Source of the DNA: Patescibacteria group bacterium
GTDB taxonomy: Bacteria > Patescibacteriota > Minisyncoccia > Moranbacterales > UBA2206
DNA: 41,418 nucleotides
Reading direction: 5' to 3'
NCBI GenBank assembly: GCA_038063775.1
Contig: JBBTUK010000009.1
Coordinates: forward strand, 21,379 to 62,796
The position numbers were made by a program, and so were the translations under genes. The number at the start of each line of letters is the position of its first letter. The stretch's first letter is position 1. The notes under the pieces were generated by a model that was given only the letters and a program-made list of their open reading frames with translations, did no database searches and was not told the DNA's origin. Below, in pieces: positions 6,432 through 21,283 of this stretch.

Positions 6432-8186
6432 ATGCTTAAAAAAGCAAACATAACGGTGATTCCCCTCTCTTCAAATGGGAGCGCTTTTAATCGTTTACAA
6501 TCGAACCGCAATTATTCCAAAAATAATCTGCGCATTATCCCTCTTGGGGGGCTGGAACAAGTCGGCCGCAATATGACCATCTTTGAATACGGTGCTGACA
6601 TCATCATTGTGGATATGGGACTCCAGTTCCCGGACGAAGACATGCCGGGCATTGATTACCTTATCCCGGACATCACCTATCTGCACGGCAAAGAAAAAAA
6701 TATCCGCGGCGTGCTCATCACCCACGGCCATTACGACCACATCGGAGCCATTCCCCATATTATGGAACGGATTGGCAATCCGCCGATTTATATGACTGAG
6801 CTGACGCGCGGAATCGTCATGAAAAGACAAGACGATTATAAAGACAAGTCGCCGCTCAACATCCATACGGTCAAAAAAATAGATCGTCTGCGGCTCGGCG
6901 CCTTTAACATTGAATTTTTCCATGTCAACCACACCATTCCGGACGCCGTCGGCATCGCCCTCACCACGCCGGTTGGCACCGTCATCCACACCGGTGACTT
7001 CAAGTTTGATCATTCACCGGTTTCCGACGATCCAGCCGATGTCGCCAAAATCGCCCGGCTCGGCAGCGAGAATGTTCTGGCTTTGATGTCGGATTCAACC
7101 GATTCCAAGACTCCCGGCTATTCCCTTTCCGAATCAAAAATCGCCAAGACTTTGGACGAGATATTCGAACGCACGGAAGGTCGACTCATCATCGCCACCT
7201 TCGCCGCGCTCATCAGCCGCATCCAATCGGTCGTGACAGCGGCGGAAAAACACGGACGCAAAGTCGCCGTTGACGGCTATTCTATGCGCACGAATGTCGA
7301 AATCGCCAAAAATCTCGGTTATCTCCAAGCCAGAAAAGGCACCTTGATCCCGATAAACAAGATTGGCGATTATCCGGAAAGCAAAATAGCGATTCTTTGC
7401 ACCGGAGCGCAGGGTGAAGCCAACGCGGTGCTGATGCGCATCATCAACGGTGAACACCGCTTTGTCAAAGTCAAAAAAGGCGACACTTTCATTTTGTCTT
7501 CCTCGGTCATTCCTGGAAACGAAAGAACGGTGCAGTCCATTATGGACACGCTCTACCGGAAAGATGCCAAGGTCATCCATTACAAAATGATGGATGTTCA
7601 CGCCGGCGGACACGCCCGTCAGGAAGATTTGAAAATGATGATCAATTTGATCCGCCCGAAATATCTCATTCCTATCCACGGAAATTATTATATGCTGAAA
7701 CTCCACGGGGAACTCGGCATCTCGGTTGGCTTGGATCCGAAAAACATCCTGATCGGCGAAAACGGACGAGTGATCGAATTTGATTACCGCGGCAACGGGA
7801 AAATCACCGAAGAAAAAGTGCCGACTAATCAAATTATGGTGGACGGCTTGGGGGTGGGCGACATCGGACAAGTGGTCTTGCGCGACCGGCAAGTCTTGGC
7901 CAAAGACGGTATGTTCACCATCATCGTCATCATTGACGGCAAGACCAAAAAGATTATCGGCAAACCTCAAGTCACTTCCCGCGGATTCATCTTTGTCAAG
8001 GAGAACTTTGATCTGGTGAACGCCACCAAGAAAAAAGTGGAAGAGATCATCGCCCAAAAAACTTCGAAAGGGGCAGCGGTCAATTGGGATTATGTGAAAA
8101 ACAACATCCGCGAAACGGTGGGCTCATTCCTCTACCAAAAGACCCAAAGGAGACCCATGATTCTTCCAGTCGTAATAGAAGTATAG
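6432..8186 (+). CDS. rnj: ribonuclease J
   Basis: 584 aa starting LRIIPLGGLEQVGRNMT, with the metallo-beta-lactamase motif ITHGHYDHIG, a beta-CASP region and an RNase J C-terminal domain. Confidence 0.93.
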   Translation: MLKKANITVIPLSSNGSAFNRLQSNRNYSKNNLRIIPLGGLEQVGRNMTIFEYGADIIIVDMGLQFPDEDMPGIDYLIPDITYLHGKEKNIRGVLITHGHYDHIGAIPHIMERIGNPPIYMTELTRGIVMKRQDDYKDKSPLNIHTVKKIDRLRLGAFNIEFFHVNHTIPDAVGIALTTPVGTVIHTGDFKFDHSPVSDDPADVAKIARLGSENVLALMSDSTDSKTPGYSLSESKIAKTLDEIFERTEGRLIIATFAALISRIQSVVTAAEKHGRKVAVDGYSMRTNVEIAKNLGYLQARKGTLIPINKIGDYPESKIAILCTGAQGEANAVLMRIINGEHRFVKVKKGDTFILSSSVIPGNERTVQSIMDTLYRKDAKVIHYKMMDVHAGGHARQEDLKMMINLIRPKYLIPIHGNYYMLKLHGELGISVGLDPKNILIGENGRVIEFDYRGNGKITEEKVPTNQIMVDGLGVGDIGQVVLRDRQVLAKDGMFTIIVIIDGKTKKIIGKPQVTSRGFIFVKENFDLVNATKKKVEEIIAQKTSKGAAVNWDYVKNNIRETVGSFLYQKTQRRPMILPVVIEV

Positions 8187-8258: not shown

Positions 8259-8267
8259 AAAAGAATT

Positions 8268-8299
8268 AGAAAATCCCCCGCCAAGGCAGAGGATTTTCT
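8268..8299. terminator. hairpin between the convergent rnj and 8308-9120 genes
   Basis: A 9-bp stem agaaaatcc ... ggattttct, followed by T-rich sequence. Confidence 0.5.
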
Positions 8300-8307
8300 A
8301 TTTGGAT

Positions 8308-9120
8308 TTACTTGCCCAATATTACCACAACATCCGCACTTTGCTGTTCAGCGGTCAGCGCTTCCTTAACTTCGGCCTTTATTTTACCGGCAGCTAAAAT
8401 TTCCTTCAGTGCTTCGGCCGGCTTTTTGAATTGTTCGCCTTTATAATAAACAGTTGCACCGATTACATTTTCTCCTTGCCCGTTGCCCGCCTCAGTTTTG
8501 ACATACCCCTGTCCGGCTAACAAGGTCTTGATTCTGCCGGCGCTGCCCGCCGCCGCTCCCGCGTTCAAAACTTTCACGCCTAGAGCCGCCGGCGCGACTT
8601 CCGCTATTTGATTGTTTTCGATGGTATTTTTTTCTTCGGCAGAATTGTCCGAAGCAGCTTCCTGATTGACCGGAATAACGACCTCGTTTTCCTTTTCACC
8701 GGCCGGATTGGCCGCTGGTTTTTTTAGCCGCCAGAGATATCCGCCACCAATGAGCGCGCCTAGAACAATCAAACTCAAAACTGCGAAAAATATTTTTTTA
8801 CCGAGAGAGGTTTTTCCTTCCACATATTCCAGCTGGCTGTTCGCCGGTTTTTCTTCCTCCGTTTTTTTCCTGCCCAAGCTGGCAATAAAAGTCTCTTGCT
8901 TTTTTATTTTATCCTTGTATATTTCTTCCTTCTTCACCTTTTCAACTTTTATAGTTTTCCTTTCACCGGGAAGCACTATGTCTTCGATTATCCTCTCTCC
9001 TTGATAAAATTCCTTGCTTCCGATTTTTTCCATCGGAACCGGTTCCCAATTTTCTTCAGAGCCTTTTGTTTCTTCGCCCATATTCTCCTTTTTGATATCA
9101 ATATTATTTTTACTTGCCAT
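8308..9120 (-). CDS. membrane-anchored LytR_C (LytR/CpsA/Psr C-terminal) domain protein
   Basis: 270 aa with a K/E-rich N-terminus, one TM helix (IFFAVLSLIVLGALIGGGYLW) and a C-terminal VKVLNAGAAAGSAGRIKTLLAGQGY...ADVVVILGK. It is a paralog of the C-terminal half of the 11282-13465 product. Confidence 0.75.
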   Translation of the reverse strand: MASKNNIDIKKENMGEETKGSEENWEPVPMEKIGSKEFYQGERIIEDIVLPGERKTIKVEKVKKEEIYKDKIKKQETFIASLGRKKTEEEKPANSQLEYVEGKTSLGKKIFFAVLSLIVLGALIGGGYLWRLKKPAANPAGEKENEVVIPVNQEAASDNSAEEKNTIENNQIAEVAPAALGVKVLNAGAAAGSAGRIKTLLAGQGYVKTEAGNGQGENVIGATVYYKGEQFKKPAEALKEILAAGKIKAEVKEALTAEQQSADVVVILGK

Positions 9121-9188
9121 TTTTTTGTTTTAGCTTAATTGCATTCAGTATACAATTTACTGCGCAATTTGCCAAAGCATGTACAAAA

Positions 9189-9257
9189 ATGTTATTTTAT
9201 TTACATCAAAAAACTCAAAGAAGGCTCTTGATACTGCTCGTCGTAATAGAAGTTTAA
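9189..9257 (+). other. third relic copy of the rnj C-terminal tail (MLFYLHQKTQRRLLILLVVIEV stop)
   Basis: Compare rnj ...SFLYQKTQRRPMILPVVIEV stop. The match is 14 of the last 17 residues, with many synonymous DNA differences. It lies between two minus-strand genes. Confidence 0.7.
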
Positions 9258-9269
9258 AAAAATAAATTT

Positions 9270-9299
9270 AAAACCCGCCGCCGAAACGGGGTGGTTTTT
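9270..9299 (-). terminator. intrinsic terminator downstream of 9306-9608
   Basis: On the minus strand, aaaaaccaccccg-tttcggcgg-cgggtttt is followed by a T-rich run. Confidence 0.5.
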
Positions 9300-9305
9300 C
9301 ATCGG

Positions 9306-9608
9306 TCACTTTGACGCTTTAGTTATGACTTTGAGCATCACGTAACCTCCGGAGGCGAAGAAAAAGAGGGCGAAAACCCGGGAAGTATAGAAAATTTGAT
9401 TGGAAAAATCTAGTGAAATAATATTGAAATATTTATTTATTTGGACAAACGAGGCTACTAAGAGAACGAAGCCGCACAAGAAAAAAAATTTAAAAGCGGC
9501 ATCCAGCCCTTTTTCTGTGCGCAATACCAGCTTCACCATGACTACGTTGGCAAAAATGGCTATAGTCAAATTCAACAGATCAAAAAATAACTCAATTTTG
9601 CTCGGCAT
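9306..9608 (-). CDS. small hydrophobic membrane protein (about 3 TM), unknown function
   Basis: A 100-aa ORF co-directional with and closely spaced to the surface locus. I recognise no motif. Confidence 0.5.
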   Translation of the reverse strand: MPSKIELFFDLLNLTIAIFANVVMVKLVLRTEKGLDAAFKFFFLCGFVLLVASFVQINKYFNIISLDFSNQIFYTSRVFALFFFASGGYVMLKVITKASK

Positions 9609-9619
9609 ATATTTTTATT

Positions 9620-10849
9620 TTAATTGCTTATTAAAAATCCTTTTTCCCTCAAAACGTTTTCATCAATCGGCCGGTAAGACAAGAACCTCTTGTATTCCAA
9701 AATGACAATGAATATCATGGCGATGAAAAGCAGAAGTATGAAGGAGATATCAAAAATAACCGTCTTGGAGAATTTTTCCTCCGTTATTACGGTGCCGCCT
9801 ATTTGAATGACCGGCCGGTCAACCGTGTTGAATGTGACGGCTTGGACATATTTGTCCTGTCCGATTTGCGGGACTACTTTTAACAGATATTTTCCGGAAA
9901 TTACTCGGTTTTGCAGGTCAATCCTTTTGAGAAAAGAGCCTCCGTTGTCCAAAAGTATTTTATCTGAAAATTGGGAAATCAGTTTTTCCTCCTCTTTGCT
10001 CAAAGAACTGTTCCACTCATAGGCATACAGGCTGTAGTTTATTTTTGCTTCAGCCGGCGAGCCGCTCCCCAGGGGAGTAAAAATAAGCTGCATATCCAGC
10101 TTATCACCGGGATTGAATTCTTTTTTGTTCAGCAGAACTGCATTGAAAAGATAGGTATTTCCGGCCGTTTTTTCCATAAGTCGGTCCCCCAGATCGTTGT
10201 CGCCCGGTGATTCTTGATAGTATGATTCATTGAGGGATAGATTCGCCGGCCTGCCTATGTTTTTGTCCGCCTCCACGGTAAAATAATATTTCTGTGTGAA
10301 AACATCGCGTTTGCCTGAAATCTCAAAAGGTGAAAAATTATACGCCTCAATTGAATGCTCTCCGTTTTCCAGCGGTTGGCCGTAATTCGTCCAGGTCCAG
10401 TTTCCCCGACTGTCGCTAAAAGTTGATGAAAAAAATCCCTCGGAATGGATTTCCAAAAAAACTTCCGAATTCGGATAGAGAACGGTGCCGGAAAAAAATA
10501 TTATGGGACTTGTCAGACGATTGTTTCTTTTTTGCTTTTCAATTAACTTTTCTCTTTCCGCCTGCGCCGGATCCTGGATCGCGACAATGATTCTGTAATC
10601 TGAATTTTTTAGATCAGCCTCATCCGATTCCTCCTCTTCTTCTTCCGCCGGTTCGGTTTTTTCTATCGGATTAAAAGGCGTTATCTCCTGCCGGAATCTG
10701 ACTGTTTCCGCGGCATAAGCAAAACTAAGATGCTTGCCCAGAATGACATAAAACAAAACGAGGTGAATCAATATCATTGCCAAGAACCCGGATAAGATTA
10801 TGAGTTTTTTGACTGTTTTTTTTTGTTTGAGAAAATCTTTTTTGTCCAT
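9620..10849 (-). CDS. bitopic surface protein with N- and C-terminal TM helices and an Ig-like/beta-sandwich-like ectodomain
   Basis: 409 aa with an acidic linker EPAEEEEEESDE. Its start overlaps the upstream stop (TAATG at 10849), which suggests translational coupling. Confidence 0.6.
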   Translation of the reverse strand: MDKKDFLKQKKTVKKLIILSGFLAMILIHLVLFYVILGKHLSFAYAAETVRFRQEITPFNPIEKTEPAEEEEEESDEADLKNSDYRIIVAIQDPAQAEREKLIEKQKRNNRLTSPIIFFSGTVLYPNSEVFLEIHSEGFFSSTFSDSRGNWTWTNYGQPLENGEHSIEAYNFSPFEISGKRDVFTQKYYFTVEADKNIGRPANLSLNESYYQESPGDNDLGDRLMEKTAGNTYLFNAVLLNKKEFNPGDKLDMQLIFTPLGSGSPAEAKINYSLYAYEWNSSLSKEEEKLISQFSDKILLDNGGSFLKRIDLQNRVISGKYLLKVVPQIGQDKYVQAVTFNTVDRPVIQIGGTVITEEKFSKTVIFDISFILLLFIAMIFIVILEYKRFLSYRPIDENVLREKGFLISN

Positions 10850-11232
10850 TAGGTATAGGTTCTCACTTCTTCGAGAAGCCCGTTATTTTTTACGAAATCA
10901 ATAGTTAAACTTTTTTTGCTCGATATCTCGCCGGCGTTCAAACTGATAATTTTTTGGTAATCGCTGAAAATTTTGTCGCTGGCGCTGATTTCCGTTTTCA
11001 GCTTGGAATCAAAAAACTTTATCATATACTGGCCGTCAGTTTCCGTAATGTTGCTCCAAATATCTTTTATCTCCCTGCCCTGGTCCAGATAAACGAATCT
11101 CACAGGAAGGATGGCTTGGCTGAAATTAATATTTTGGGCTTGCGCTGCTTTAAACGTAAAGAGATTAATAATAAAAGCGGCCAGAACCGTCCCGCTTAAA
11201 ATAAGTTTTCTGCTTTTTAAGTTCACCCGCAT
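10849..11232 (-). CDS. small secreted protein, unknown function
   Basis: 127 aa with a signal-peptide-like N-terminus (LILSGTVLAAFIINLFTFKAAQAQ). Its stop overlaps the next gene's start. Confidence 0.55.
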   Translation of the reverse strand: MRVNLKSRKLILSGTVLAAFIINLFTFKAAQAQNINFSQAILPVRFVYLDQGREIKDIWSNITETDGQYMIKFFDSKLKTEISASDKIFSDYQKIISLNAGEISSKKSLTIDFVKNNGLLEEVRTYT

Positions 11233-11281
11233 TTTCAGCCTAAGGCTGATCCGCCTTGGGCGGATACCTTTTTAATTTTGA

Positions 11282-13465
11282 TTATTTTCCCAGCATTACC
11301 ACGACATCGGCGCTTTTTTGTTCCATGGTGGCCGCTTTCTTAACCAACGCGTCTATCTTTTGTCCGCTGATTACTTCTTTGATAGCTTCCGCCGTTTCTT
11401 TCAAGCTGTCATCCTTATAGTACACTGCCGCTCCCGAATGATCGCTGGCCAGAGCATTTTTGGCCTCTGCCTTAGAATATCCTCCGCTCACGAGAATATC
11501 TTTTATTTTTCCGGCCGCCCCTTCCGATGCTCCGCCATTTAGAACTATGAGGCTGATCTTCGCCTTTGTATCATTATTTCCAAGAGAGGCGTTCTGATCG
11601 GCAGTATTTTTCTCCTCTTCAGCGGCTTGATTTTTATTCGCATCCTCTGAATTATTGCCTATTGAAATGGGAGGAATTTTTTCCTGGATCACAATTTCTT
11701 CTTTTCCGTTTTTTCCCAAGAATGCCACGACTCCCCAGATCGCAATCGCCAAAAAAATTGCTCCCGGAATGATCCAGCCTAGTTTTTTCCAGAGAAAACT
11801 TTTCTCCTCAACTATTTCTTCTTTTTCCTCGGATACTTCCCTCCTGGCCAGCTTCGCGATAAATTCTTCCTTGCTCTTCTTTTTTTGGGCGGGCTCTTCG
11901 CCGGCCGGACCGGTTTTTTCGCCGTAAATTTCCTCTTTTTTCACCGGTTCGGCTTTGATTTTTTTGCCTTCATTTTCTATTTTTTCTTTTTCAATCACTT
12001 TTTGAACTGCTTCTTCAATCGGAGCCTCTTCGGCCGGTAAAATATCCTCTGGTTCTTTTTCTATTAATAAGTTCTCCACTTTTTTCTCCAGCATTGCTTC
12101 GTTAATCGGAGAAACGCCGTCCAGAGGCGGAATCAATATTGTCCGTCCCGTTTCTAAGGAATATGGGGCTTTTAACTTATTAACCTTCACTAAAACTTTC
12201 CAATTAACATTGTTCTGCAGGGCTAACCCCACAACGTCCTCGCCTTTTTGCACGGCATAAGGAACCCAGCCGATGCCGCCGTATTTCTTCTTATGATAAA
12301 GTCTCCAGGCCTCATATGCCGCAAAAGCCAACAAAAACAGAACGGATGCGATGGCCATCTCTCGCCAGGGAATGACCCATATTTTTATTTCGGGTCCGAC
12401 TACCGCCACTTCCTGACCGCCAGCATCTTCGTATTTCATTTCCGTCGCGAAAGAAAAACGGCCGAAACGGGGATTGTGCCAGGAATAGTTGGAAATGAAG
12501 CTGTCTTTTTTCAGCACCTGGAATTTCCGGCTTACATCCTCGCTTCTTTTTCCGAACAGCAAGTCTTTGACATGGATGATATTTTCCTGCTCAATGCTGA
12601 CATTGCCGTCATTTTTGACCGAAGATTGGACCAGATATTCCTGGGGCCTCTTCGGATCACCGAACCAGTCGGCAAAGCTGAACTCCTTGAAATTTTTGAT
12701 AACCTTAAAATCTCCCAGCGTCAGTTTTTTTATGATTTCTCCGGGCACCGTTTCATAGATTCGGACGCCCACCCGGGTCGTCAGTTTTATGGCTGAACCG
12801 GTTTCCGCCTTTTGCGTTTCCGGTTCCACTTTTTGGATTAGGACCCCTCCCGTGTGTTCGCCGACATCAACTTCCTTCGGAACCCTGATAACAAAAGGGA
12901 TGAACAGTTTTTCCTTGGACGCCATTTCTTTTTCCACTGATTCAACGCCGGCGCACCATTTTTCCAGCTCCTGAAATTGCGTTTCTTCGACTTTCGGCTT
13001 TATTTTTACTTTTTTATTTTGAACATCAAATTCGTCCTGAATCTCCTCCCGGCTCAAGCGGCAAACTTCCAATATTTTCTTGTCTTTCCTTTTAAAAAGT
13101 CCCTGGAAAAATTCCGGCAGCGGAGCGGGATAAAAGCTTACCCAGGAACCGACTTCCAGTTTTGGTTCGCTGAATTGCTTCAGGGCGAAACCGCCGCTGG
13201 AGCTCGGCGTCGTATCCGCCGCGTATATCAGAGCTTTCCAGGACTCCGAGAAAAGATTATTCACTTCCAGCAAGTCTTCCTTCGCTTCCCCTGGATTTAA
13301 TTTATAAATGAACCAGGAAGCGCTGTTTTCCACGTTCGGATCCGGATTGGCCGGTTTCCCGCCGAGCATTCCGTATTCAATGGCCCGGGCCTGGTCGGTT
13401 CCGGCCAGCGCGAATAAGGCTGATAGGCACAAAATCGTTAAAAAAACTTTTATTTTTATTTTCAT
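11282..13465 (-). CDS. DUF916/DUF3324-like cell-surface protein fused to LysM and LytR_C domains
   Basis: 727 aa, in order: a signal peptide; SWFIYKLNPGEAKEDLLEVNNL...YAADTTPSSSGGFALKQ (a DUF916-like pattern); TM1 at aa ~369-389 followed by HKKKY; a LysM-like segment YAVQKGEDVVGLALQNNVNWKVLVKVNKLKAPYSLETGRTILIP; an E/K-rich linker; TM2 at aa ~562-584; and LytR_C (ISLIVLNGGASEGAAGKIKDIL...ADVVVMLGK). Confidence 0.7.
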   Translation of the reverse strand: MKIKIKVFLTILCLSALFALAGTDQARAIEYGMLGGKPANPDPNVENSASWFIYKLNPGEAKEDLLEVNNLFSESWKALIYAADTTPSSSGGFALKQFSEPKLEVGSWVSFYPAPLPEFFQGLFKRKDKKILEVCRLSREEIQDEFDVQNKKVKIKPKVEETQFQELEKWCAGVESVEKEMASKEKLFIPFVIRVPKEVDVGEHTGGVLIQKVEPETQKAETGSAIKLTTRVGVRIYETVPGEIIKKLTLGDFKVIKNFKEFSFADWFGDPKRPQEYLVQSSVKNDGNVSIEQENIIHVKDLLFGKRSEDVSRKFQVLKKDSFISNYSWHNPRFGRFSFATEMKYEDAGGQEVAVVGPEIKIWVIPWREMAIASVLFLLAFAAYEAWRLYHKKKYGGIGWVPYAVQKGEDVVGLALQNNVNWKVLVKVNKLKAPYSLETGRTILIPPLDGVSPINEAMLEKKVENLLIEKEPEDILPAEEAPIEEAVQKVIEKEKIENEGKKIKAEPVKKEEIYGEKTGPAGEEPAQKKKSKEEFIAKLARREVSEEKEEIVEEKSFLWKKLGWIIPGAIFLAIAIWGVVAFLGKNGKEEIVIQEKIPPISIGNNSEDANKNQAAEEEKNTADQNASLGNNDTKAKISLIVLNGGASEGAAGKIKDILVSGGYSKAEAKNALASDHSGAAVYYKDDSLKETAEAIKEVISGQKIDALVKKAATMEQKSADVVVMLGK

Positions 13466-13492
13466 CTGTTTTATGTTTTTTTAATTTTCTAA

Positions 13493-13501
13493 ATTATACC
13501 A
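13493..13501 (-). promoter_or_regulatory. extended -10 element TGgTATAAT upstream of 11282-13465
   Basis: The minus strand reads ccggattgTGgTATAATttag, about 28 nt upstream of the ATG. Confidence 0.4.
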
Positions 13502-13520
13502 CAATCCGGCATAATAATAA

Positions 13521-13546
13521 AACTGATACGCTAATGCGTATCAGTT
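13521..13546 (-). terminator. intrinsic terminator after 13573-14223
   Basis: A perfect 11-bp stem aactgatacgc/gcgtatcagtt with loop taat, followed on the minus strand by ttttattatt. Confidence 0.65.
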
Positions 13547-13572
13547 ATTAAAATCAAAGTTTTTCAATTATT

Positions 13573-14223
13573 TTAGGTCGCTGTCAAAGTCATGTTTAAG
13601 GTGTAGCTTCCCGTGGTTTGGGCTCCCGGAATGGTTTGCGACAGGCTGGTGCCGGTCAGATCCCATTGTCCGGGCTTTGGAGCTCCGGCCGCGGCCGTCA
13701 TCAGATCAATGCTACTCACTGATCCTTCCACGAAAGCATCGCTTGTCCCCTTGGAAACATTGGTTGTAGCCGTTCCGCCGACGCCCGCGATGGTTCCCAC
13801 GCTCGGATCAATGGTCATTTGTCCGCCATAAGAATCCGTATCCACTCCATCCCCGGCGCTGGCCGTGGAATCGTTATAATCATAGTAATTTGTTCCATTG
13901 GACCAAGCGGCAGTCGCTCCGCTGGTAGCCGCGATATTGAGCGTCCAGGTATCGGTCGTCCCGCTGGGATTGGTAATGCGCATCCGTTCGCTGGAGGTGC
14001 CTAGCGTGGCCGCCGAGGCTTGATAAGTCATGGAAAAAGCCTTGGAGGGAAAAGCCACGCCAGGGCTAGTTACTGTATTTCCACTAGCGTCTACGATTTG
14101 CACATCCAGAGAGCCGGTTATGGATTGGGAAAATTCGGTCGTGTCGGAAGCTAGTGCCGCCAGAACTCCAGTCAGGACAGAAACCGCAAACACCAGCGAA
14201 ATAACAGTTATTAATTTACGCAT
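13573..14223 (-). CDS. secreted WxL-like module protein (paralog 1)
   Basis: 216 aa with a signal peptide, then GSLDVQIVDASGNTV..., TWTLNIAATSG, ...GQWDLTGTSLSQTIPGAQTTGSYTLNMTLTAT. The layout matches WxL-type surface domains: two W-x-L motifs and a C-terminal aG.Y...tlt segment. Confidence 0.65.
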   Translation of the reverse strand: MRKLITVISLVFAVSVLTGVLAALASDTTEFSQSITGSLDVQIVDASGNTVTSPGVAFPSKAFSMTYQASAATLGTSSERMRITNPSGTTDTWTLNIAATSGATAAWSNGTNYYDYNDSTASAGDGVDTDSYGGQMTIDPSVGTIAGVGGTATTNVSKGTSDAFVEGSVSSIDLMTAAAGAPKPGQWDLTGTSLSQTIPGAQTTGSYTLNMTLTAT

Positions 14224-14258
14224 GTTTGTTTTGTAATAATTAAATCGCCTGATTTTGC

Positions 14259-14930
14259 TTATGAAATAGACAGGACCATAGTTATGGAATAGCTGCCGGC
14301 CGCCTGGGAAGCAGGCAGTTTTTGGGTAATGTTGTCAGCCGCGCCGATGAAATCCCAGCGGCAGGTAGTGGCCGCGCCGGCCGCCGCCGACATGATGTCA
14401 ATGCTATTAGTCGTGCCTTCCACGAAAGAATCGCTAGTTCCCAAGGAAACATTGGTTGTAGCGCATCCGGAAACTCCGGTTATGGAACCCGTACTCGGAT
14501 TGACCGTCATCTGCCCGCCGTAAGAATCAGTGTCCGCTCCGTCCGTGTATCCCGAACCGTCATTGAAATCGTAATAAGCCGTCCCGGTTGTCCACGTGGC
14601 GGTTGTGGCGCTGGCGGCTAAATTAGCCGTCCAGATTGCTGTCGTTGTCGGATTGGAAGCCCGGACTCTTTCGGCCGAAGTGCCGAACTGCCCGGTGGCG
14701 TCCTGGGTGCTAAAACTGAAGGTTTTCGCTCCCAGGGAAATAGCCGGACTGGCTACTGTGGTGCCCGCCGCGTCCACGACATCAACGCTCAAAGAACCGG
14801 CGTTGATCGTCTGATTAAAAGTGGATGAGTTGCTGGCGAAGACTTGTATTCCGACCAAGAATACGAAGATCAGTGCCAGAACAAGCGATTTTTGGCCTAT
14901 TTTAGCCATTTTTCTGATTTTTGTTTTCAT
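14259..14930 (-). CDS. secreted WxL-like module protein (paralog 2)
   Basis: 223 aa: AGSLSVDVVDAAGTTV..., IWTANLAAS, ...CRWDFIGAADNITQKLPASQAAGSYSITMVLSIS. It aligns end to end with 13573-14223. Confidence 0.65.
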   Translation of the reverse strand: MKTKIRKMAKIGQKSLVLALIFVFLVGIQVFASNSSTFNQTINAGSLSVDVVDAAGTTVASPAISLGAKTFSFSTQDATGQFGTSAERVRASNPTTTAIWTANLAASATTATWTTGTAYYDFNDGSGYTDGADTDSYGGQMTVNPSTGSITGVSGCATTNVSLGTSDSFVEGTTNSIDIMSAAAGAATTCRWDFIGAADNITQKLPASQAAGSYSITMVLSIS

Positions 14931-15004
14931 ATTTTTGATGTAATTATTTAAAATTTGCTTTAAACAAAGCTTTTTTCGCTTTTAAGCCACTTCTTAGCTT
15001 TAGC

Positions 15005-15037
15005 AAAACAAAAAATGAATCCTCACCCCGAGAATTC
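15005..15037 (-). terminator. terminator-like hairpin inside the 5' leader of the WxL-like operon (candidate attenuator)
   Basis: The minus strand reads gaattctc-ggggt-gaggattc (8-bp stem) followed by attttttgtttt. It lies about 60 nt downstream of the predicted TSS and about 75 nt upstream of the 14930 ATG. Confidence 0.5.
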
Positions 15038-15102
15038 ACCCTAGATAGCCCCTTTATTGTCGTCTATGTCGTTTTATCCCCTTTTTAAGCTATTGTAATA
15101 CC

Positions 15103-15131
15103 ATTATACACGATATCAAGGATTGTGTCAA
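15103..15131 (-). promoter_or_regulatory. consensus sigma70 promoter TTGACA-N17-TATAAT
   Basis: The minus strand reads TTGACAcaatccttgatatcgtgTATAAT. The TTGA of the -35 box is the left flank repeat of the GIY-YIG element. Confidence 0.7.
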
Positions 15132-15417
15132 CCCCGCACTAACTTTCGTTCAAAGACTTTTTGATTCTTCTTCTTAATTGCGCCCAGGCTTGTCCAAATT
15201 GCTTTATTTGCTTTTCTCTTTCTTTTGCGTCCCACTCGGATAAATACGCTTCATAATACATGAGTTTCCAGATGTGTCCTTTTGTAGAAAAAGAATTTCC
15301 CTCATTGTGGTCAAAAAGTCTTTTCCGCAAGTTACTACTATATCCATAGTATAGCTCCTTGCGCTCATTTCTCAGGACATAAAAATAATGCATACAATAA
15401 CGAAAGTTAGTGCGGGG
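15132..15417 (-). mobile_element. 286-bp element with perfect 19-bp terminal inverted repeats carrying a GIY-YIG ORF, flanked by TCAA/TCAA
   Basis: The inverted repeat ccccgcactaactttcgtt (15132-15150) pairs with aacgaaagttagtgcgggg (15399-15417). The TCAA flanks are at 15128-15131 and 15418-15421. The ORF fills 255 of the 286 bp. Confidence 0.75.
15139..15393 (-). CDS. GIY-YIG nuclease family protein (single catalytic domain, COG2827/UPF0213-like)
   Basis: 84 aa: MHYFYVLRNERKELYYGYSSNLRKRLFDHNEG...YYEAYLSEWDAKEREKQIK, matching the GIY...YIG...R...H/N...E pattern. The stop and last four codons lie inside the inverted repeat. Confidence 0.85.
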   Translation of the reverse strand: MHYFYVLRNERKELYYGYSSNLRKRLFDHNEGNSFSTKGHIWKLMYYEAYLSEWDAKEREKQIKQFGQAWAQLRRRIKKSLNES

Positions 15418-17793
15418 TCAAGTGGCCGTTAGCGTCATACCAATGGAATAGCTGTCCGCTTGTTGCTGGGCCGGTATATCCTGGGTCAGCGCCACGCCCG
15501 TAAAGTCCCAGTAACAGCCAAAGGAGGTGGTGGACGTTAGAAGAGTTACACTGTTGCCCGCGTCAAAATAGGCAGCTGATCCTTTGGATGGTGAGACGGC
15601 GCCGCAACCCCCCTCCGGCGTTATTGTTCCCGCGCTGGGATCCACCCTTAGCCGGCCGTTAGCCGCCGTGTCATTGAAATCATAATTATAGGTTGCGCCT
15701 TGCCAAAGAGTCGAGGCGCCGCCGGTCGCTGCAATCGTAAGGTTCCAGTTTCCATTAGCTGTAGTATTGGTCAATCGAATTTTCTGGCTGGCCACGCCGA
15801 GCGTTCCAGCGGAGGTCTGTCCCACCCAGTCGAACGTTTCGGCGGAAAAAGAAACGGACGGACTGCCCACCGGTGTACCGCCCGAATCCACGATGTCCAC
15901 TGACAGCGTACCCGCAGAAAGCGTGATGGTCCCGGAAGAATAATCATTCACTTGGGAATTCACTCCGTCACTGACCAAGCCGTAGACATAATAGCTGCCC
16001 GCCGACATGCCGGCCGTATCCCAGGAACAAGTCGCTCCCGTGCCTTCGCCCGCCGAGGCGCAAGCACCCGTAATGGCCGTACCGTCCAGACCCGAACCAT
16101 TGGAATCCCAATAAAAGACCGCGTTAACGATGTTGTCAGAATCAGCCAAATCATAAGTGATGTTATACAGAGTGCCGATGGGCACGCTGTCACTCACCCC
16201 ATCCGGCTGGCTGACGGTGAGCGTCGGCCGGGCGTTGATGGTCACCACTCCCGGTGAATAGTCGCTGACTTCAGTGTTGACCGTGTCATTGACATCCCGG
16301 CCGTAAATATAATAAGTGCCGGGCGAGACGCCGGTCGTGTTCCAGGCGCAAGTGCCGCCCGAGGCTTCGCCCTGGTTCTGGCAGGCGGCAATGGAAGTGC
16401 CGTTGAGCCCCGTACCATCCGTGTCGTAATAGAAATCCACGGTAACCGTGCTGTCGGTGTCGGCCAGATTGTAAGTTATGTAATTATAAGTGCCGTCCTG
16501 GGCGATGGTATCACCGGTGCCGTCAGGCTGAGTGACAGTTAAAGTCGGCGCGTCGTTGATCCGGATCCGGCCGGTTGAAACATCAACGACATCCGGATTC
16601 ACTCCGTCATTGGCCACGCCATAAATATAGTAATACGTACTGAGACTCATGCCCTCGCCAAGAGGGCTGAAGGAACATGTTGCGTTGGTTCCCTCAATTT
16701 GGTTTTGACAGCTTGAGATGGCCGTGCCCCCGGCTCCGTTGCCGTCCGTTTCATAGTAAAAATCGGCGGTAGCGGTTCCCGCGTCGGCCAAGTCATATTG
16801 GATCTGGTAATTGCCTCCGTCCGCTACGTCCGTGTCCGAGGCTGGATTATCCACCGTGACGGTCGGCGGAGTATCTGCATAAGGTCTTAAAGCCAAGGTG
16901 ACCGCCGTCCACGAATCGCTTGTGGTGGTCGTGCCCCCACCGGCAAATGCCGCCGGATCATAGGCGCCGGAAGACCAGGTCGTATACCCGGCTCCGACCA
17001 TGCCGTCTTGGGTGTCATTCCCATTTGCCGCGCGGAAATCAGTGAGATATGACGCGGTGTAATTGCCGCCCGTTGAGCCGGATCCGGCGCCGGCTACATA
17101 AATCCACGCTCCGGAGGAAGTGGGCGTAATCGCCCCCGGATTTACAACCCGAGTATTTATCGCTCCGGCAGTGACTGCCGCGACATCAAGGGGCGTGCCT
17201 GCATCAACATTCCGGAACACATGAACAGACCAGGCGCGGCCGCCAGACGCGTCGCCGCCCGCGAGAATCACCGAGGTTTCCGGCGTCCCCGGCATAAACC
17301 GATACGCCACTCGGAGATTTGAGTCGTAAGAGTCGTTCTGATACAGCTCCGACCCGGCCAGTGTGTAGGCCGTTCCCCCACTATTATTGATCGTCAGCGC
17401 CTTGTTGGCTGTGTCCCCATTGGAAAACGCGACAATGACCAGATCGTCGGCCGCTGGCGTTGAAGCACTGCCGTTGGTGAGCGAAAAATTAACCGTCGTG
17501 TTGCCGCTAACACCGGCAGAGCTGCCCACCTGGCCTCCCACATAGGATACTGCCGCCAGAGCGGTGTGAATCCTTAACTTTTCCGGCAAATCCCGGATAG
17601 ACGCGTATTTATCCACGATGTCCGAACCGCTATCTTTTTGCGTAAGCCAAATTCTGTCCACGATTCCCCGGGTGCTGATGTAGGAATCTACCAGGGTCTT
17701 TACGAGATAAAAAGAGGCGTTGGAAAAAACCAGTCCTGTAATTACCAGAAATACTACCAGGAATCTGAATATTTTTCCGCTTCGTTTGCCCAT
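15418..17793 (-). CDS. large membrane-anchored surface protein: N-terminal TM, unknown ~280-aa domain, 3 tandem ~105-aa repeats, C-terminal WxL-like module
   Basis: 791 aa. The C-terminal 164 aa (GTLSVDIVDSGGTPV...NWNLTIAAT...CYWDFTGVALTQDIPAQQQADSYSIGMTLTAT) are paralogous to the two small proteins downstream. The TGA stop lies within the TCAA flank of the GIY-YIG element. Confidence 0.8.
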   Translation of the reverse strand: MGKRSGKIFRFLVVFLVITGLVFSNASFYLVKTLVDSYISTRGIVDRIWLTQKDSGSDIVDKYASIRDLPEKLRIHTALAAVSYVGGQVGSSAGVSGNTTVNFSLTNGSASTPAADDLVIVAFSNGDTANKALTINNSGGTAYTLAGSELYQNDSYDSNLRVAYRFMPGTPETSVILAGGDASGGRAWSVHVFRNVDAGTPLDVAAVTAGAINTRVVNPGAITPTSSGAWIYVAGAGSGSTGGNYTASYLTDFRAANGNDTQDGMVGAGYTTWSSGAYDPAAFAGGGTTTTSDSWTAVTLALRPYADTPPTVTVDNPASDTDVADGGNYQIQYDLADAGTATADFYYETDGNGAGGTAISSCQNQIEGTNATCSFSPLGEGMSLSTYYYIYGVANDGVNPDVVDVSTGRIRINDAPTLTVTQPDGTGDTIAQDGTYNYITYNLADTDSTVTVDFYYDTDGTGLNGTSIAACQNQGEASGGTCAWNTTGVSPGTYYIYGRDVNDTVNTEVSDYSPGVVTINARPTLTVSQPDGVSDSVPIGTLYNITYDLADSDNIVNAVFYWDSNGSGLDGTAITGACASAGEGTGATCSWDTAGMSAGSYYVYGLVSDGVNSQVNDYSSGTITLSAGTLSVDIVDSGGTPVGSPSVSFSAETFDWVGQTSAGTLGVASQKIRLTNTTANGNWNLTIAATGGASTLWQGATYNYDFNDTAANGRLRVDPSAGTITPEGGCGAVSPSKGSAAYFDAGNSVTLLTSTTSFGCYWDFTGVALTQDIPAQQQADSYSIGMTLTAT
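15913..16869 (-). repeat. three in-frame tandem ~315-bp coding repeats (aa ~309-627)
   Basis: The repeat units are PTLTV(T/S)QPDG...Y(N/D)LAD.D....V.FY(Y/W)D..G.G..GT.I..C......G..C.W.T.G...G.YY.YG...D.VN, each with two conserved Cys. Confidence 0.8.
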
Positions 17794-17798
17794 GATGC

Positions 17799-18767
17799 TT
17801 AATTTTCGCTGTAGCCGCTTACATAATTGAAGACTTGTTCGGATATTTTTTTCATCAGGTCTTCCGCCTCTCGTTTGTCCCTCCCGCTTACCATTACGGT
17901 CAAGATGTACGGCCGGTTCGGAGCGTAAATGATGCCCGAATCCATATACACATTTTTGTCCTCGGCGACGCCGATTTTGTGGGCATAGACCGTGCCCTCC
18001 GGCAATCCGCCTTTGAGATATTCGTCAAATCGGGTTTCCGAAAGATAAGCCAGGAGCTTTTGGGAACTCTCCTCTGACAGATATGAAGAATTATAAAGCG
18101 CCCGGAAATTAGCCGAGTATTTTTTCGCCCCGATTTCTCCTCCCGCTGAGAAAAAATCACCGGCTCCGAGATGTTCGTAAACATCGTAGATTTCCCTGGT
18201 TTCCAGATTTCTCACCAGGATAAAGTTGGCCGTGTTGTCGGAATCCACCAAAGCGCGGCGGACCAGATCTTCGATGGTAAAGATCGAGCCAGTCGGCTCC
18301 TTGAAGAGAGTTCCGAAGCTTTCTTCCTTGTCGGCCGCCATCAGAACCAGTTTATTGTCCCATTTCCATTCGCCCTTTTCAATCTTTTTGGCCACCGCCA
18401 TGGCCACCGGCAATTTGAGGAGGCTCGCCGGCCAGAATTGCGCGTCCTTGTTGATGGAGATATTGGCGCCGGTCGGCAAATATTCGAAATAGATAGATAT
18501 ATCTTTTTGGCCTTCGTATTTATTCAGCTCGTCCCGAAGCGGCTGGATGTTTATGATCAGGTCTTTCTGGTTTACTGATTTTCTAGCCGGATTCAGAAGT
18601 TGAAATTTGTCTTCCGTTTCTTCTGTTTGCTTTTTAGAGCCGTCCTTGATCTGGGTAAAATAGAATATTGTGAACAGATTCAAAACAACCAAAACCGCTA
18701 GAGCGGCAATAAAAAACTTTTGGTTATCAAGCTTTTCCGCGATTTTTTTGTTATTTTTTTCTTGCAT
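17799..18767 (-). CDS. class A beta-lactamase-like serine hydrolase, membrane-anchored
   Basis: It carries SxxK (PASLLKLP), SDN (DSDNTANF) and KxG (HKIGV) motifs. I trimmed the start to ATG 18767 (MQEKNNKK) because the ORF-track start at 18854 lies inside the repeat 18832-18907. Confidence 0.7.
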   Translation of the reverse strand: MQEKNNKKIAEKLDNQKFFIAALAVLVVLNLFTIFYFTQIKDGSKKQTEETEDKFQLLNPARKSVNQKDLIINIQPLRDELNKYEGQKDISIYFEYLPTGANISINKDAQFWPASLLKLPVAMAVAKKIEKGEWKWDNKLVLMAADKEESFGTLFKEPTGSIFTIEDLVRRALVDSDNTANFILVRNLETREIYDVYEHLGAGDFFSAGGEIGAKKYSANFRALYNSSYLSEESSQKLLAYLSETRFDEYLKGGLPEGTVYAHKIGVAEDKNVYMDSGIIYAPNRPYILTVMVSGRDKREAEDLMKKISEQVFNYVSGYSEN

Positions 18768-18831
18768 AGTGATGCTTATATTATACAATAATTTGCCAGA
18801 ATAAGCATTTTGATGATAGTTTATATATATG

Positions 18832-18907
18832 CCCGGTAGTGAAATTTTGACCAATTTCCTCCGGGAGGAAATTTTTATATTATTTAAGTCAAAATTCTAC
18901 TACTGGG
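18832..18907 (+). repeat. palindromic MITE-like element, subfamily A (76 bp), flanked by TATG/TATG
   Basis: Arms are cccggtagtgaaattttgac ... gtcaaaattctactactggg, with an internal hairpin aatttcct-ccgg-aggaaatt. The TATG flanks are at 18828-18831 and 18908-18911, and the second contains the trpS ATG. Confidence 0.85.
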
Positions 18908-18908
18908 T

Positions 18909-19919
18909 ATGAAAAGGATTTTTTCCGGCATTCAGCCGTCAGGCAACTTGCACCTGGGCAATTACCTTGGGGCCATCAAAAACTGGGTCAAGCTTCAAAA
19001 CGAGTATGACTCTATTTTTTGCGTGGTGGATCTCCACGCCATTACTGTTCCGCAAGATCCGGAGGAACTCAAGAAAAAAATCATCGAAGTGGCCAAAATA
19101 TATTTGGCCGCCGGCATAGACCCCAAAAAATCGGCGATTTTCATCCAATCGCATGTCCCCGAACACGCGGAGTTGGCGTGGATTTTGAATACTTTGGCCA
19201 AGATTTCCGAAATGGAACGAATGACCCAATTCAAGGATAAATCGGCCAAGAATAAAGAGGGCGTTGGTATGGGACTGTTCGATTACCCAGTGCTGATGGC
19301 CGCCGATATTCTTCTTTACGATACGCAAGTCGTCCCGGTCGGCGAAGACCAGCTGCAACACATTGAAATAACCAGGACATTGGCCAAAAGATTTAATACT
19401 CGTTTCGGCGAAACATTTGTGATTCCCAAAGCTTATTATATGGAAAATGAAGGAATGCTTGCCCGCCAAAGCCTTGGCGTCGGCGGGAGGATTATGGGAC
19501 TGGATGATCCAGCTAAAAAAATGAGCAAGTCGGCCGAGTCGGAATACAATTACATCGCCCTTACGGATTCCGAAGAAGCGGTGCGCAGAAAAATCAAAAA
19601 GGCCGTGACTGACTCCGGAACCGAAATAAAATATGCTGATGATAAACCGGCACTTAAGAATTTGATAAATATCTATTCTCTCTTGTCCGACAAAAAACCG
19701 CAGGAAATTGAAAAATTATATAAAGACAAAGGATACTCTGAATTTAAAACTGACTTAGCTGAAGTAATTATAAATTTCCTGAAACCTTTTCAGGAAAAAT
19801 ATAACGCTCTCTCGGACGAAGAAGTTCTAAAAATCCTCCGGGAAGGCGCGGAAAAAGTTCGTCCGCTGGCTAATAAAAAACTGGAAGAAGTAAAAAATAA
19901 AGTTGGATTTATTTTGTAA
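18909..19919 (+). CDS. trpS: tryptophan--tRNA ligase
   Basis: 336 aa: IFSGIQPSGNLHLGNYLGA (HIGH region) and KMSKS (KKMSKSAES). Confidence 0.93.
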   Translation: MKRIFSGIQPSGNLHLGNYLGAIKNWVKLQNEYDSIFCVVDLHAITVPQDPEELKKKIIEVAKIYLAAGIDPKKSAIFIQSHVPEHAELAWILNTLAKISEMERMTQFKDKSAKNKEGVGMGLFDYPVLMAADILLYDTQVVPVGEDQLQHIEITRTLAKRFNTRFGETFVIPKAYYMENEGMLARQSLGVGGRIMGLDDPAKKMSKSAESEYNYIALTDSEEAVRRKIKKAVTDSGTEIKYADDKPALKNLINIYSLLSDKKPQEIEKLYKDKGYSEFKTDLAEVIINFLKPFQEKYNALSDEEVLKILREGAEKVRPLANKKLEEVKNKVGFIL

Positions 19920-19924
19920 AATTT

Positions 19925-21283
19925 TTATCCCCGCACTAAGATCAAAAGCTCATCGCGTTTCTCTTCCATGAGCTTTTTTGTTTTGGCTTCTACATTCAAG
20001 CGGATCACCGGCTCGGTGTTGGACCCGCGAAGATTAAACCTCCACGCTGGATAGTCAATGGAAACTCCGTCAATTTCATTCAGGACTCCATCATCATATT
20101 TTTCCTTGGCTTTTGCTAAAACTGCTTGGACATCTGTTACTTCATTATTTATTTCCCCGCTTACAAAATATTTTTGCCAAAACATTTCATTCATAATTTC
20201 CGAGAGTGTCCTATTTTGCGTTGACAAAAATTCCAGCATCAAAGCCAGCGGAATCATACCATTGTCACAATAAAAATAATCACGGAAATAATAATGGCCG
20301 CTCATTTCACCGCCGAAAACAGTATCCTCGCCTCTCATTCTTTCTTTGATAAAGGCATGCCCGGCTTTATTGACTATGGTGGTTCCGCCATTTTCCTTTA
20401 CAATGTCTTCAACGGCCCAGGTTAACCTTGGATCGTGAAGAATTGCGGAGCCGGGAAATCTCTCGAGAAATATTTTAGCCAGAAGCGCCGTGATAAAATA
20501 CCCTTCAATAAACTCTCCCTTCTCCGTGAAAAAGAAGCAGCGGTCCGCGTCGGCATCCCAAGCCACTCCGAAATCCGCTCCGTTTTCAACCACTAGCTTG
20601 GAAATTTCTTCCCGGTTTTCCGGAATCAGTGGATCCGGCCGTCCTTTGGGAAAATTTCCGTCTGGCTCAAAATTCATTTTTATTATTTCCGTTTGTGTCC
20701 CCTCTAAAATTTTTTCCAAAGCTTTCCCGGCCATTCCAAAATTCGTGTTGGCGACAATTTTGAATTTTTTAAACTTTGAAAAATCGGCAAAAGTTTTTAC
20801 TTTAACAACATATTCTTCCAAAATATCCCGCTCTTCAATTAATTTCTTTTCTTGTTCATTTAATTCATAATCTTCGTTTCGTGTTTCATAGTTTTTGGCG
20901 ATATCTCTGATTTCAAACAGCCCGGTATCCGAAGAAATTGGCCTTGATCCTTCGCGAACGAATTTCATCCCGTTATATTCTTTGGGATTATGCGACGCGG
21001 TGATGGTGAATCCCCCGGAATATCCATAGCTAGCAACAGCAAAATAAAACATGTCGGTCGAAACTATTCCAATATCAATGACTTTTATTCCGGAATCGGT
21101 AACGGCTTTAATGGCCGCTTTTTTCAAAGTAGCTGATGACAACCTGACATCGCAGCCAATAACCACTTCGGTAGGCTTAACAAATTCCAAATAGGCTTTG
21201 GCAATTCTGTAAACATCCGCTTCATTTATTTCGTTAGGATAGACTCCTCTGACATCATAAGCCCTAAAAATTTGTTCGTTCAT
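19925..21283 (-). CDS. phosphomannomutase/phosphoglucomutase (alpha-D-phosphohexomutase family)
   Basis: 452 aa with the active-site TASHNP and metal site WDADADR. Confidence 0.88.
   Translation of the reverse strand: MNEQIFRAYDVRGVYPNEINEADVYRIAKAYLEFVKPTEVVIGCDVRLSSATLKKAAIKAVTDSGIKVIDIGIVSTDMFYFAVASYGYSGGFTITASHNPKEYNGMKFVREGSRPISSDTGLFEIRDIAKNYETRNEDYELNEQEKKLIEERDILEEYVVKVKTFADFSKFKKFKIVANTNFGMAGKALEKILEGTQTEIIKMNFEPDGNFPKGRPDPLIPENREEISKLVVENGADFGVAWDADADRCFFFTEKGEFIEGYFITALLAKIFLERFPGSAILHDPRLTWAVEDIVKENGGTTIVNKAGHAFIKERMRGEDTVFGGEMSGHYYFRDYFYCDNGMIPLALMLEFLSTQNRTLSEIMNEMFWQKYFVSGEINNEVTDVQAVLAKAKEKYDDGVLNEIDGVSIDYPAWRFNLRGSNTEPVIRLNVEAKTKKLMEEKRDELLILVRG

Follow-up and report, generated by a model that had tools for sequence, protein, structure and literature searches.

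A probable Patescibacteria counterpart of the Gram-positive WxL/WxLIP surface-protein cluster

We analysed a gene cluster in a 41,418-nucleotide (nt) window of contig JBBTUK010000009.1 (assembly GCA_038063775.1), from a Patescibacteria group bacterium. As read from the list of open reading frames (ORFs) and their translations, the cluster comprises ten co-directional minus-strand ORFs between the genes for RNase J and TrpRS/PGM. We consider this locus to be, probably, the counterpart in Patescibacteria (the candidate phyla radiation, CPR; here probably a Moranbacteria-like member) of the WxL/WxLIP, or csc-type, surface clusters of Gram-positive bacteria. Its observed core comprises a scaffold of WxLIP fold that carries a hydrophobic helix, together with three secreted proteins sharing a module, and the scaffold and module genes are tightly linked across relatives. 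In the window, the three module genes and the single WxLIP-like gene fall within 6.5 kb, with no more than one gene between them, and a hidden Markov model (HMM) of the module detects no further copy.

The scaffold candidate is a membrane protein of 727 amino acids (aa) encoded at positions 11282-13465. A signal peptide (residues 1-27) is followed by an ectodomain of two immunoglobulin-like (Ig-like) domains (residues 28-365; nt 12371-13384) and a first hydrophobic helix (residues 366-388, or 367-395 in the structural model). Beyond the helix lie a LysM domain (residues 403-446; nt 12128-12259; E = 9e-6), a Glu/Lys-rich linker, a second helix at about residues 560-583, and a LytR_C domain (residues 637-727; nt 11285-11557; E = 5e-7). 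The match to PF06030 (DUF916, now named WxLIP_PGBD) is weak and below threshold, at 18.2-19.9 bits where the cut-off is 27.3 (E = 0.0027 for the full-length protein and 7.8e-4 for the ectodomain alone). The relatives are more informative. A sequence search with the N-terminal 397 residues returned more than 150 of them; the close ones share its domain layout, LysM included and in most cases LytR_C too, and many of the distant ones (E about 1e-40) match PF06030 above threshold, one being annotated as a Peregrinibacteria DUF916 protein. All 22 of the sequences that we aligned, two Firmicutes controls among them, matched PF06030 at E<=1.

Structure comparison gives the same assignment. When the AlphaFold model of the 727-aa protein (mean predicted local distance difference test score, pLDDT, 84.2) was compared by Foldseek with 350,542 PDB chains, the first-ranked match was 9i25_C (E = 2.2e-12, template modelling (TM) score 0.64), from an entry titled 'WxLIP from Enterococcus faecium locus A bound to long WxL', and ranks 2 and 3 were 9i1y_A and 9i1y_B (about 1e-11). 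The alignment to WxLIP covers both Ig-like domains, with 343 columns for a chain of 251 residues. Among the next matches were the chaperone-usher chaperones CfaA, CsuC and CupB2, at E about 1e-7 to 1e-5. In the sequence alignment, the protein is collinear with WxLIP/DUF916 proteins of Enterococcus, Paenibacillus and Actinobacteria through both extracellular domains and the helix: the conserved N-terminal [YW]-F-x-[LY] strand of the family aligns with the YFDL motif described for WxLIP (PMC10599100), and residues 366-388 align with the transmembrane helices of Firmicutes and actinobacterial WxLIPs. Judged from the model and from this transitive sequence evidence, the 727-aa protein is WxLIP-like.

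The fusion partners are not special to this locus. Signal peptide, ectodomain, helix and LysM form the commonest layout in the CPR family, and the LysM/LytR_C fusion is standard architecture in Patescibacteria. The LCP catalytic domain PF03816 was not among the Pfam-scan matches; only the accessory LytR_C domain was, in the 727-aa protein and in a 270-aa protein of the same locus. It should also be noted that the DUF916-like domain contains a helical insert of about 65 aa with two nearly invariant cysteines (C135 and C171; residues ~105-172, nt 12950-13150 approximately). This insert is found in close CPR relatives and is absent from the Peregrinibacteria-type, Firmicutes and actinobacterial proteins.

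The three partner proteins are clear homologs of one another over the C-terminal 170 residues of the largest and the mature parts of the two smaller ones, a region of about 180 aa that forms a C-terminal beta-sandwich. The large protein, 791 aa long (positions 15418-17793; module HMM E = 1.4e-60; no Pfam match above threshold), has a signal/anchor helix (residues 8-26), a Gly/Ala/Thr-rich domain of 225 aa (residues 81-305), three repeats of about 105 aa with a cysteine pair in each (residues 306-621; nt 15931-16878) and the WxL-like module (residues 622-791; nt 15421-15930). The initial annotation called it a giant, which overstates its size. The small proteins, of 223 aa (14259-14930; E = 6e-75) and 216 aa (13573-14223; E = 7.5e-82), each consist of a signal peptide and the module.

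This module belongs to a large family. A word-indexed search found 61 relatives, none with a Pfam domain, and those with names came from Moranbacteria, Kerfeldbacteria and the 'Patescibacteria group'. An exhaustive profile search (E<=1e-3) expanded the Pfam-unassigned family to at least 769 clusters at 50% identity, in which all named members are Patescibacteria, including Dojkabacteria. Among the best 150 of the 769, proteins of about 200-260 aa are a signal peptide plus the module, and proteins of 330-2069 aa have it at the C-terminus or no more than about 20 residues away. The passenger domains of the large members vary and include PATR, Laminin_G_3, fn3, DUF2341 and Ig domains. The AlphaFold model of the 216-aa protein (pLDDT 82.7) is all-beta, and FimA pilins, some of them self-complemented variants, head its list of PDB matches (E = 1e-4 to 6e-3, TM-scores 0.37-0.56, identity 8-10%). 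A conserved acidic insert, Y-D-F-N-D ... D-G-x-D-x-D-S-x-G-G-Q, occupies residues ~113-135 of the 216-aa protein, has its equivalent in the 223-aa protein and is cut short in that of 791 aa. The insert, which WxL domains lack and which has low confidence in the model, may serve as a loop that binds metal.

The module and the WxLIP-like protein travel together. In all seven distinct module-bearing loci that we retrieved from relatives (L006, L007 and L009-L013), a WxLIP-like gene is adjacent; L008, a short duplicate contig of the small/WxLIP-like pair of L007, was not counted. L010 and L013 show only a small module gene followed by the WxLIP-like gene. Longer arrangements are found in L006 (large, small, WxLIP-like, 127-aa), L007 (small, WxLIP-like with LysM, large with PATR), L009 (small, small, WxLIP-like, 127-, 409- and 100-aa) and L011 (small, small, WxLIP-like, a 358-aa module protein). 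Nearly the whole gene order of our locus is kept in L012, a Moranbacteria-like contig: beta-lactamase-like, large, small, small, WxLIP-like, 127-aa, 409-aa and three copies of the 100-aa gene. In the two homolog searches, 15 pairs of small and WxLIP-like proteins sit on contigs of identical size; a scan of the genome collection with a narrower alignment yielded three loci. The large/small/WxLIP-like triad is the conserved core, and the predicted conservation of the gene set in relatives is borne out for this core. The beta-lactamase-like gene and the genes for the 127-, 409-, 100- and 270-aa proteins are conserved only in closer, Moranbacteria-like relatives.

Two further loci, L014 and L015, were reached through distant WxLIP-like proteins and gave no module hit. 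On the 408-kb contig of L014 we observed a small (170 aa) and a large (779 aa) protein that share a different C-terminal module, a 190-aa ORF whose PF13731 match stays below threshold (E = 0.0067), and a 317-aa, helix-bearing Ig-like protein that by eye seems WxLIP-like and weakly matches PapD_N (E = 0.026). The ORFs of note lie at 3669-4241, 11341-13680, 13796-14308 and 14363-15316. This group may harbour several diverged forms of the system side by side.

We used profile comparisons to examine the relationship of the module to WxL domains. The comparison clusters were an Enterococcus plasmid (L001; large WxL, LPXTG protein, small WxL, WxLIP) and a Paenibacillus plasmid (L002), together with actinobacterial plasmids that have DUF916 genes beside ORFs matching a purpose-built WxL HMM. 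The first W-x-L motif of WxL domains is nearly invariant in the module, as W-T-L, W-N-L or W-T-A-N-L (W93 of the 216-aa protein). Without signal peptides, hhalign aligned module and WxL profiles at P = 2.2e-4 (probability 45%), rising to P = 9e-5 (60%, 108 collinear columns) with more WxL diversity. The score of 35.0 compares with a maximum of 15.6 in 40 column shuffles, and the alignment pairs W-T-L with W-T-L and 'IP..Q..GSY.i.MTLT' with 'IP..Q..tY.ttivWnL'. When the CPR module HMM ranked 255 ORFs, the top 5 were WxL or WxL-like and lay beside DUF916 genes. In an independent set of 142 ORFs, the only two hits at E<=1 were again WxL or WxL-like ORFs beside DUF916. For eight targets, composition-preserving shuffles reached the real score in 0, 0, 2, 3, 9, 16, 61 and 103 of 300 trials.

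The modules of the actinobacterial ORFs end in Y-x-x-T-[IL]-T-L-T-L, with the second Trp missing as in the CPR module. These ORFs come from Streptomyces, Embleya, Cellulosimicrobium, Clavibacter and Arthrobacter plasmids (L003 4329-4838, L004 2777-4807, L005 4140-4766, L016 2320-3435, L017 2857-3501 and L018 1285-3648) and, where annotated, are called hypothetical or RICIN. All match the WxL HMM at E = 1e-5 to 1e-20 except that of Clavibacter (L005), whose only tie is a tblastn match to the C-terminus of the Streptomyces WxL (E = 3e-3). One of the ORFs exceeds the Pfam WxL threshold (29.1 bits). As in the Patescibacteria, DUF916 genes adjoin those for small and large proteins with the module at the C-terminus, and the ORFs of L004 and L017 are the best single-sequence matches of the CPR module profile. 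Unlike the CPR module, these modules still reach the WxL profile; also in contrast, no LysM or LytR_C match was found in the three actinobacterial DUF916 proteins scanned. The passengers here are glycoside hydrolase, ricin and LamG domains.

A number of results weigh against the proposed relationship. For the module, PF13731 (WxL) gave no hit at E<=1 in the three window proteins and none at E<=0.1 in the 70 module-family members searched, and the best match of the purpose-built WxL HMM to any one family member was E = 3e-4. The second Trp-x-Leu motif is missing, being M/L-T-L without the Trp. The profile-profile significance lies in the twilight zone and depends on the WxL set used (P 0.03 to 9e-5): against WxL subsets P was 0.0015 to 0.03, compared with 1e-11 to 0.007 for genuine WxL subfamilies among themselves. 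When the module model was searched with Foldseek, the solved WxL chain, 9i25_A, did not appear in the top 50. For the 727-aa protein, PF11797 (DUF3324) was matched by none of the CPR relatives and, among the 22 aligned sequences, only by the two Firmicutes controls; a CPR-only WxLIP-like profile searched against PDB sequences returned only LysM matches and did not reach EfmWxLIP1. Finally, the LysM domain lies between the two hydrophobic helices (residues 366-583), after a Lys-rich, stop-transfer-like stretch. With that placement, LysM would be cytoplasmic by the positive-inside rule, provided that the first helix crosses the membrane of the cell itself, which fits poorly with a wall-binding role.

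Taken against these points, the evidence supports the initial interpretation in large part, and neither of the outcomes named beforehand as refuting it was observed. The 727-aa protein had been described as DUF916/DUF3324-like: the DUF916/WxLIP half is upheld by PF06030 in the relatives and by the top rank of 9i25_C, and the DUF3324 half is not upheld by Pfam, as PF11797 is unmatched. In the model, the second Ig-like domain occupies the DUF3324 position, and the Pfam matches to this domain in CPR members are fn3_5 and NPCBM_assoc-type Ig. The label 'WxL-like' likewise keeps its layout, its gene context and a set of weak, consistent profile signals, and loses Pfam membership. Pfam and NCBIfam scans of the three module proteins and 70 relatives revealed no WxL, TasA or pilin family, and searches of PDB sequences with the module profile found nothing relevant at E<=10. 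A profile of real WxL proteins also failed to retrieve the solved WxL chain there, and for a genuine large WxL the match to 9i25_A is no better than E = 0.3; WxL proteins are therefore too diverged for this route. From the sequence comparisons, we consider that the module is probably a remote homolog of WxL, closest to the actinobacterial WxL modules. That it is functionally equivalent, as the partner of the WxLIP-like protein, is somewhat more likely still.

WxL/WxLIP clusters have been described almost entirely in Lactobacillales and Bacillales (PMC10599100, PMC9772566, PMC1534035), and our full-text literature searches found no publication linking WxL or DUF916 clusters to CPR/Patescibacteria. 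A WxL gene cluster has been defined as at least one WxLIP and at least two WxL genes within four genes (PMC10599100), a definition that our locus fits only if the module is accepted as WxL. The features shared with the csc-type clusters (Siezen 2006, PMC1534035; Hassan & Williamson, PMC9772566, PMC10599100; PDB 9i25, 9i1y) are an ectodomain of DUF916 type with two Ig-like domains, then a hydrophobic helix; two or more secreted proteins with a common beta module of 160-190 aa, either alone or at the C-terminus of a large protein with a variable head; alignment of the first W-x-L and of the C-terminal 'P..Q..Y...' strand; and adjacent, co-directional genes. The differences begin with the host, Patescibacteria rather than Firmicutes. 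The module has no Pfam WxL match and no second Trp, and carries the acidic insert YDFND...DGxDxDSxGGQ, while the WxLIP-like protein has the Cys-pair insert of about 65 aa, lacks a DUF3324 match and continues into LysM, a second helix and LytR_C. An LPXTG (CscD-type) protein is missing, and the companions are instead a beta-lactamase-like hydrolase and membrane proteins of 127, 409, 100 and 270 aa.

By analogy with E. faecium, where binding of WxL by WxLIP through hairpin insertion has been proposed (PMC10599100) and the complex since crystallised, the WxLIP-like ectodomain would bind the module non-covalently, with a strand of a beta-hairpin inserted into an incomplete sandwich. We regard this mechanism as likely from that work and from the title of PDB entry 9i25. 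The candidate hairpin lies at about residues 202-240 of the 727-aa protein, chosen because its tip is disordered in the model. Such binding would keep the large protein and its two small counterparts at the envelope, with the scaffold itself held to the wall by LytR_C and perhaps LysM. The exposed, binding end of the 791-aa protein would then be formed by its Gly/Ala/Thr-rich domain and the three Cys-pair repeats, with the beta-lactamase-like hydrolase and the 127-, 409-, 100- and 270-aa membrane proteins acting as lineage-specific helpers. The two small genes are bracketed by a promoter-like site upstream of the 223-aa gene (TTGACA-17-TATAAT, 15103-15131, minus strand; 12/12 consensus positions) and a terminator-like hairpin with an 11-bp stem directly after the 216-aa gene, between it and the WxLIP-like gene (13521-13546, minus strand), each a pattern match only. 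This arrangement suggests that the two small proteins are expressed separately and strongly and are made in excess; given their own consensus promoter and downstream hairpin, they would probably be abundant platform or filler subunits.

The same structural matches admit a different assembly. The cluster might build a pilus-like fibre, as a monoderm analogue of the chaperone-usher system, in which the small proteins are pilin-like and polymerise by donor-strand exchange, the 791-aa protein is a tip adhesin with a C-terminal pilin-like domain as in FimH, and the WxLIP-like protein is a membrane-tethered chaperone or base. The module model resembles the FimA fold, with FimA pilins (self-complemented ones included) as its best PDB matches, and the 727-aa ectodomain resembles CfaA, CsuC and CupB2 after WxLIP itself. 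An adhesin with a C-terminal pilin-like domain and a partner that completes an incomplete sandwich follow the same logic in both systems. The second WxLIP-like protein of L014, with its weak PapD_N match, also points this way, as do the promoter and hairpin around the small genes, an arrangement often seen for major-subunit genes. However, the TM-scores are modest at 8-10% identity, neither an usher-like gene nor any outer-membrane component was noted in the ORFs and Pfam matches of the locus, the two systems lack sequence similarity, and no fibre is reported for WxL systems in PMC10599100 or PMC9772566. The likeness may reflect only a common incomplete Ig-like sandwich, and we judge a fibre unlikely, if still the main rival to our reading.

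Extending this idea to the whole group, Patescibacteria might use a widespread monoderm analogue of the chaperone-usher pilus built on donor-strand complementation. A tethered WxLIP-like 'chaperone' would load pilin-like modules, the small proteins would polymerise or tile the surface, and the large module proteins, with their swappable passengers, would be the host-recognition adhesins of episymbionts; the conserved hydrophobic helix ahead of LysM might enter a membrane that does not belong to the cell itself. We hold this to be rather unlikely.

The module could also be unrelated to WxL, a CPR-specific family of surface-coat or S-layer type that merely lies beside a DUF916/LysM/LytR_C envelope protein, with the cluster serving general envelope construction rather than adhesin display. 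This would account for the lack of a Pfam WxL hit, for the absence of the solved WxL from the best structural matches, and for small proteins rich in Thr, Ser, Ala and Gly behind an apparently strong promoter. The penicillin-binding-protein (PBP)/beta-lactamase-like hydrolase and LytR_C proteins nearby would suit envelope construction as well, and L014 and L015 have no module hit. It would leave unexplained the tight linkage to the WxLIP-like gene across lineages (7/7 loci), a split into small and large proteins with the module at the C-terminus exactly as in WxL, and an order-dependent likeness to WxL that goes beyond composition. Moreover, L014 has a small/large pair of its own together with the ORF that matches PF13731 below threshold. 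A coat family of this kind is quite unlikely in our view.

That the modules are TasA/camelysin-like fibre proteins, a case the initial annotation had itself set apart from its proposal, is highly improbable: beyond the general feature of small, secreted, beta-rich proteins in a cluster, nothing supports it, as there was no Peptidase_M73/TasA Pfam match in the window proteins or the 70 family members, neither a TasA nor a camelysin structure in the top 50 of the Foldseek search, and no SipW-type signal peptidase gene noted among the ORFs at 6.5-20.5 kb.

The WxL/WxLIP-like core is accompanied by several further genes. Upstream, a gene for a membrane-anchored serine hydrolase of class-A beta-lactamase/PBP-like type (17799-18854, with the likely ATG at 18767; PF13354 E = 1.5e-38) ends 5 nt before the 791-aa gene. 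It scores 84.5 bits against the 200-bit cut-off of NCBIfam bla_class_A, and SxxK (SLLK), SDN and KxG (KIG) motifs are readable in the translation. On these sequence features, it is a class A family member to which no substrate is assigned. A homolog holds the same position in L012 (4.8e-82).

Downstream of the WxLIP-like gene lie a secreted or anchored protein of 127 aa (10849-11232; no Pfam or NCBIfam match), a bitopic protein of 409 aa with N- and C-terminal hydrophobic helices (9620-10849; no family match) and a membrane protein of 100 aa with three hydrophobic segments (9306-9608; no family match). Homologs of the 127-aa protein follow the WxLIP-like gene in L006, L009 and L012, those of the 409-aa protein occur in L009 (1e-110) and L012 (7e-106), and the 100-aa protein has one homolog in L009 and three in tandem in L012. 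We considered the 409-aa protein as a second WxLIP-like protein and rejected it, as it is not detectably DUF916-like. The last gene encodes the 270-aa LytR_C protein, with a charged N-terminus and one transmembrane helix (8308-9120; PF13399 E = 1.2e-8). With phmmer, it matches the C-terminal parts of 727-aa homologs at about 1e-23. It is paralogous to the second half of the 727-aa protein (charged linker, helix and LytR_C), which looks to have been duplicated as a separate gene. A terminator-like hairpin with a 15-bp stem and T-run (8267-8300, minus strand; pattern match) closes the locus.

A gene for a stand-alone GIY-YIG nuclease of 84 aa (15139-15393; PF01541 E = 1e-11) lies between the 791-aa gene and the promoter-like site. 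Homologs in related loci are found elsewhere (L012 15373-15651 and L014 18276-18581), and these differing positions make it look like a wandering element rather than a part of the cluster; the gene does not belong to the surface set. All locus proteins except this one have a signal peptide or hydrophobic helices. The initial annotation had placed the ORFs correctly, all on the minus strand, and had stated that they encode only secreted or membrane proteins, which is not strictly true in view of this overlooked gene without signal peptide or transmembrane segment. It had also described overlapping stop and start codons: the 127- and 409-aa genes do overlap by 1 nt at 10849, while the 409- and 100-aa genes are 11 nt apart.

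The flanking genes are housekeeping genes (RNase J, TrpRS, PGM/PMM, PGI and YchF), with RNase J at 6432-8186 on the plus strand and TrpRS/PGM at 18909-21283. The G+C content is 0.50-0.58 over 13.5-17.5 kb compared with 0.445 for the whole window, so the rise first noted at 13.5-17.6 kb is real. Most of the excess falls at codon position 2 (0.54-0.58 versus about 0.32) because the proteins are rich in Thr, Ser, Ala and Gly; it is an effect of amino-acid composition. Horizontal transfer as its cause was therefore rejected, as an excess of this kind is on its own no sign of foreign origin.

Beyond type IV pili, the means by which CPR bacteria attach to and recognise their hosts are largely unknown. 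What is novel in this locus is a recognisable WxLIP scaffold with new fusions and a large module family, spread across the CPR and without annotation, whose relation to WxL is that of a distant branch at most. The actinobacterial plasmids show WxL/WxLIP clusters beyond Lactobacillales and Bacillales. On the reading that we prefer, the system would extend into Patescibacteria as well, and its likeness to the pilin-chaperone pair suggests a common mechanism of strand complementation. With a WxLIP-fold scaffold and a large module family bearing variable, adhesin-like heads, the cluster is a concrete candidate for host attachment and recognition in the CPR, and may be the apparatus by which these tiny bacteria present adhesins.

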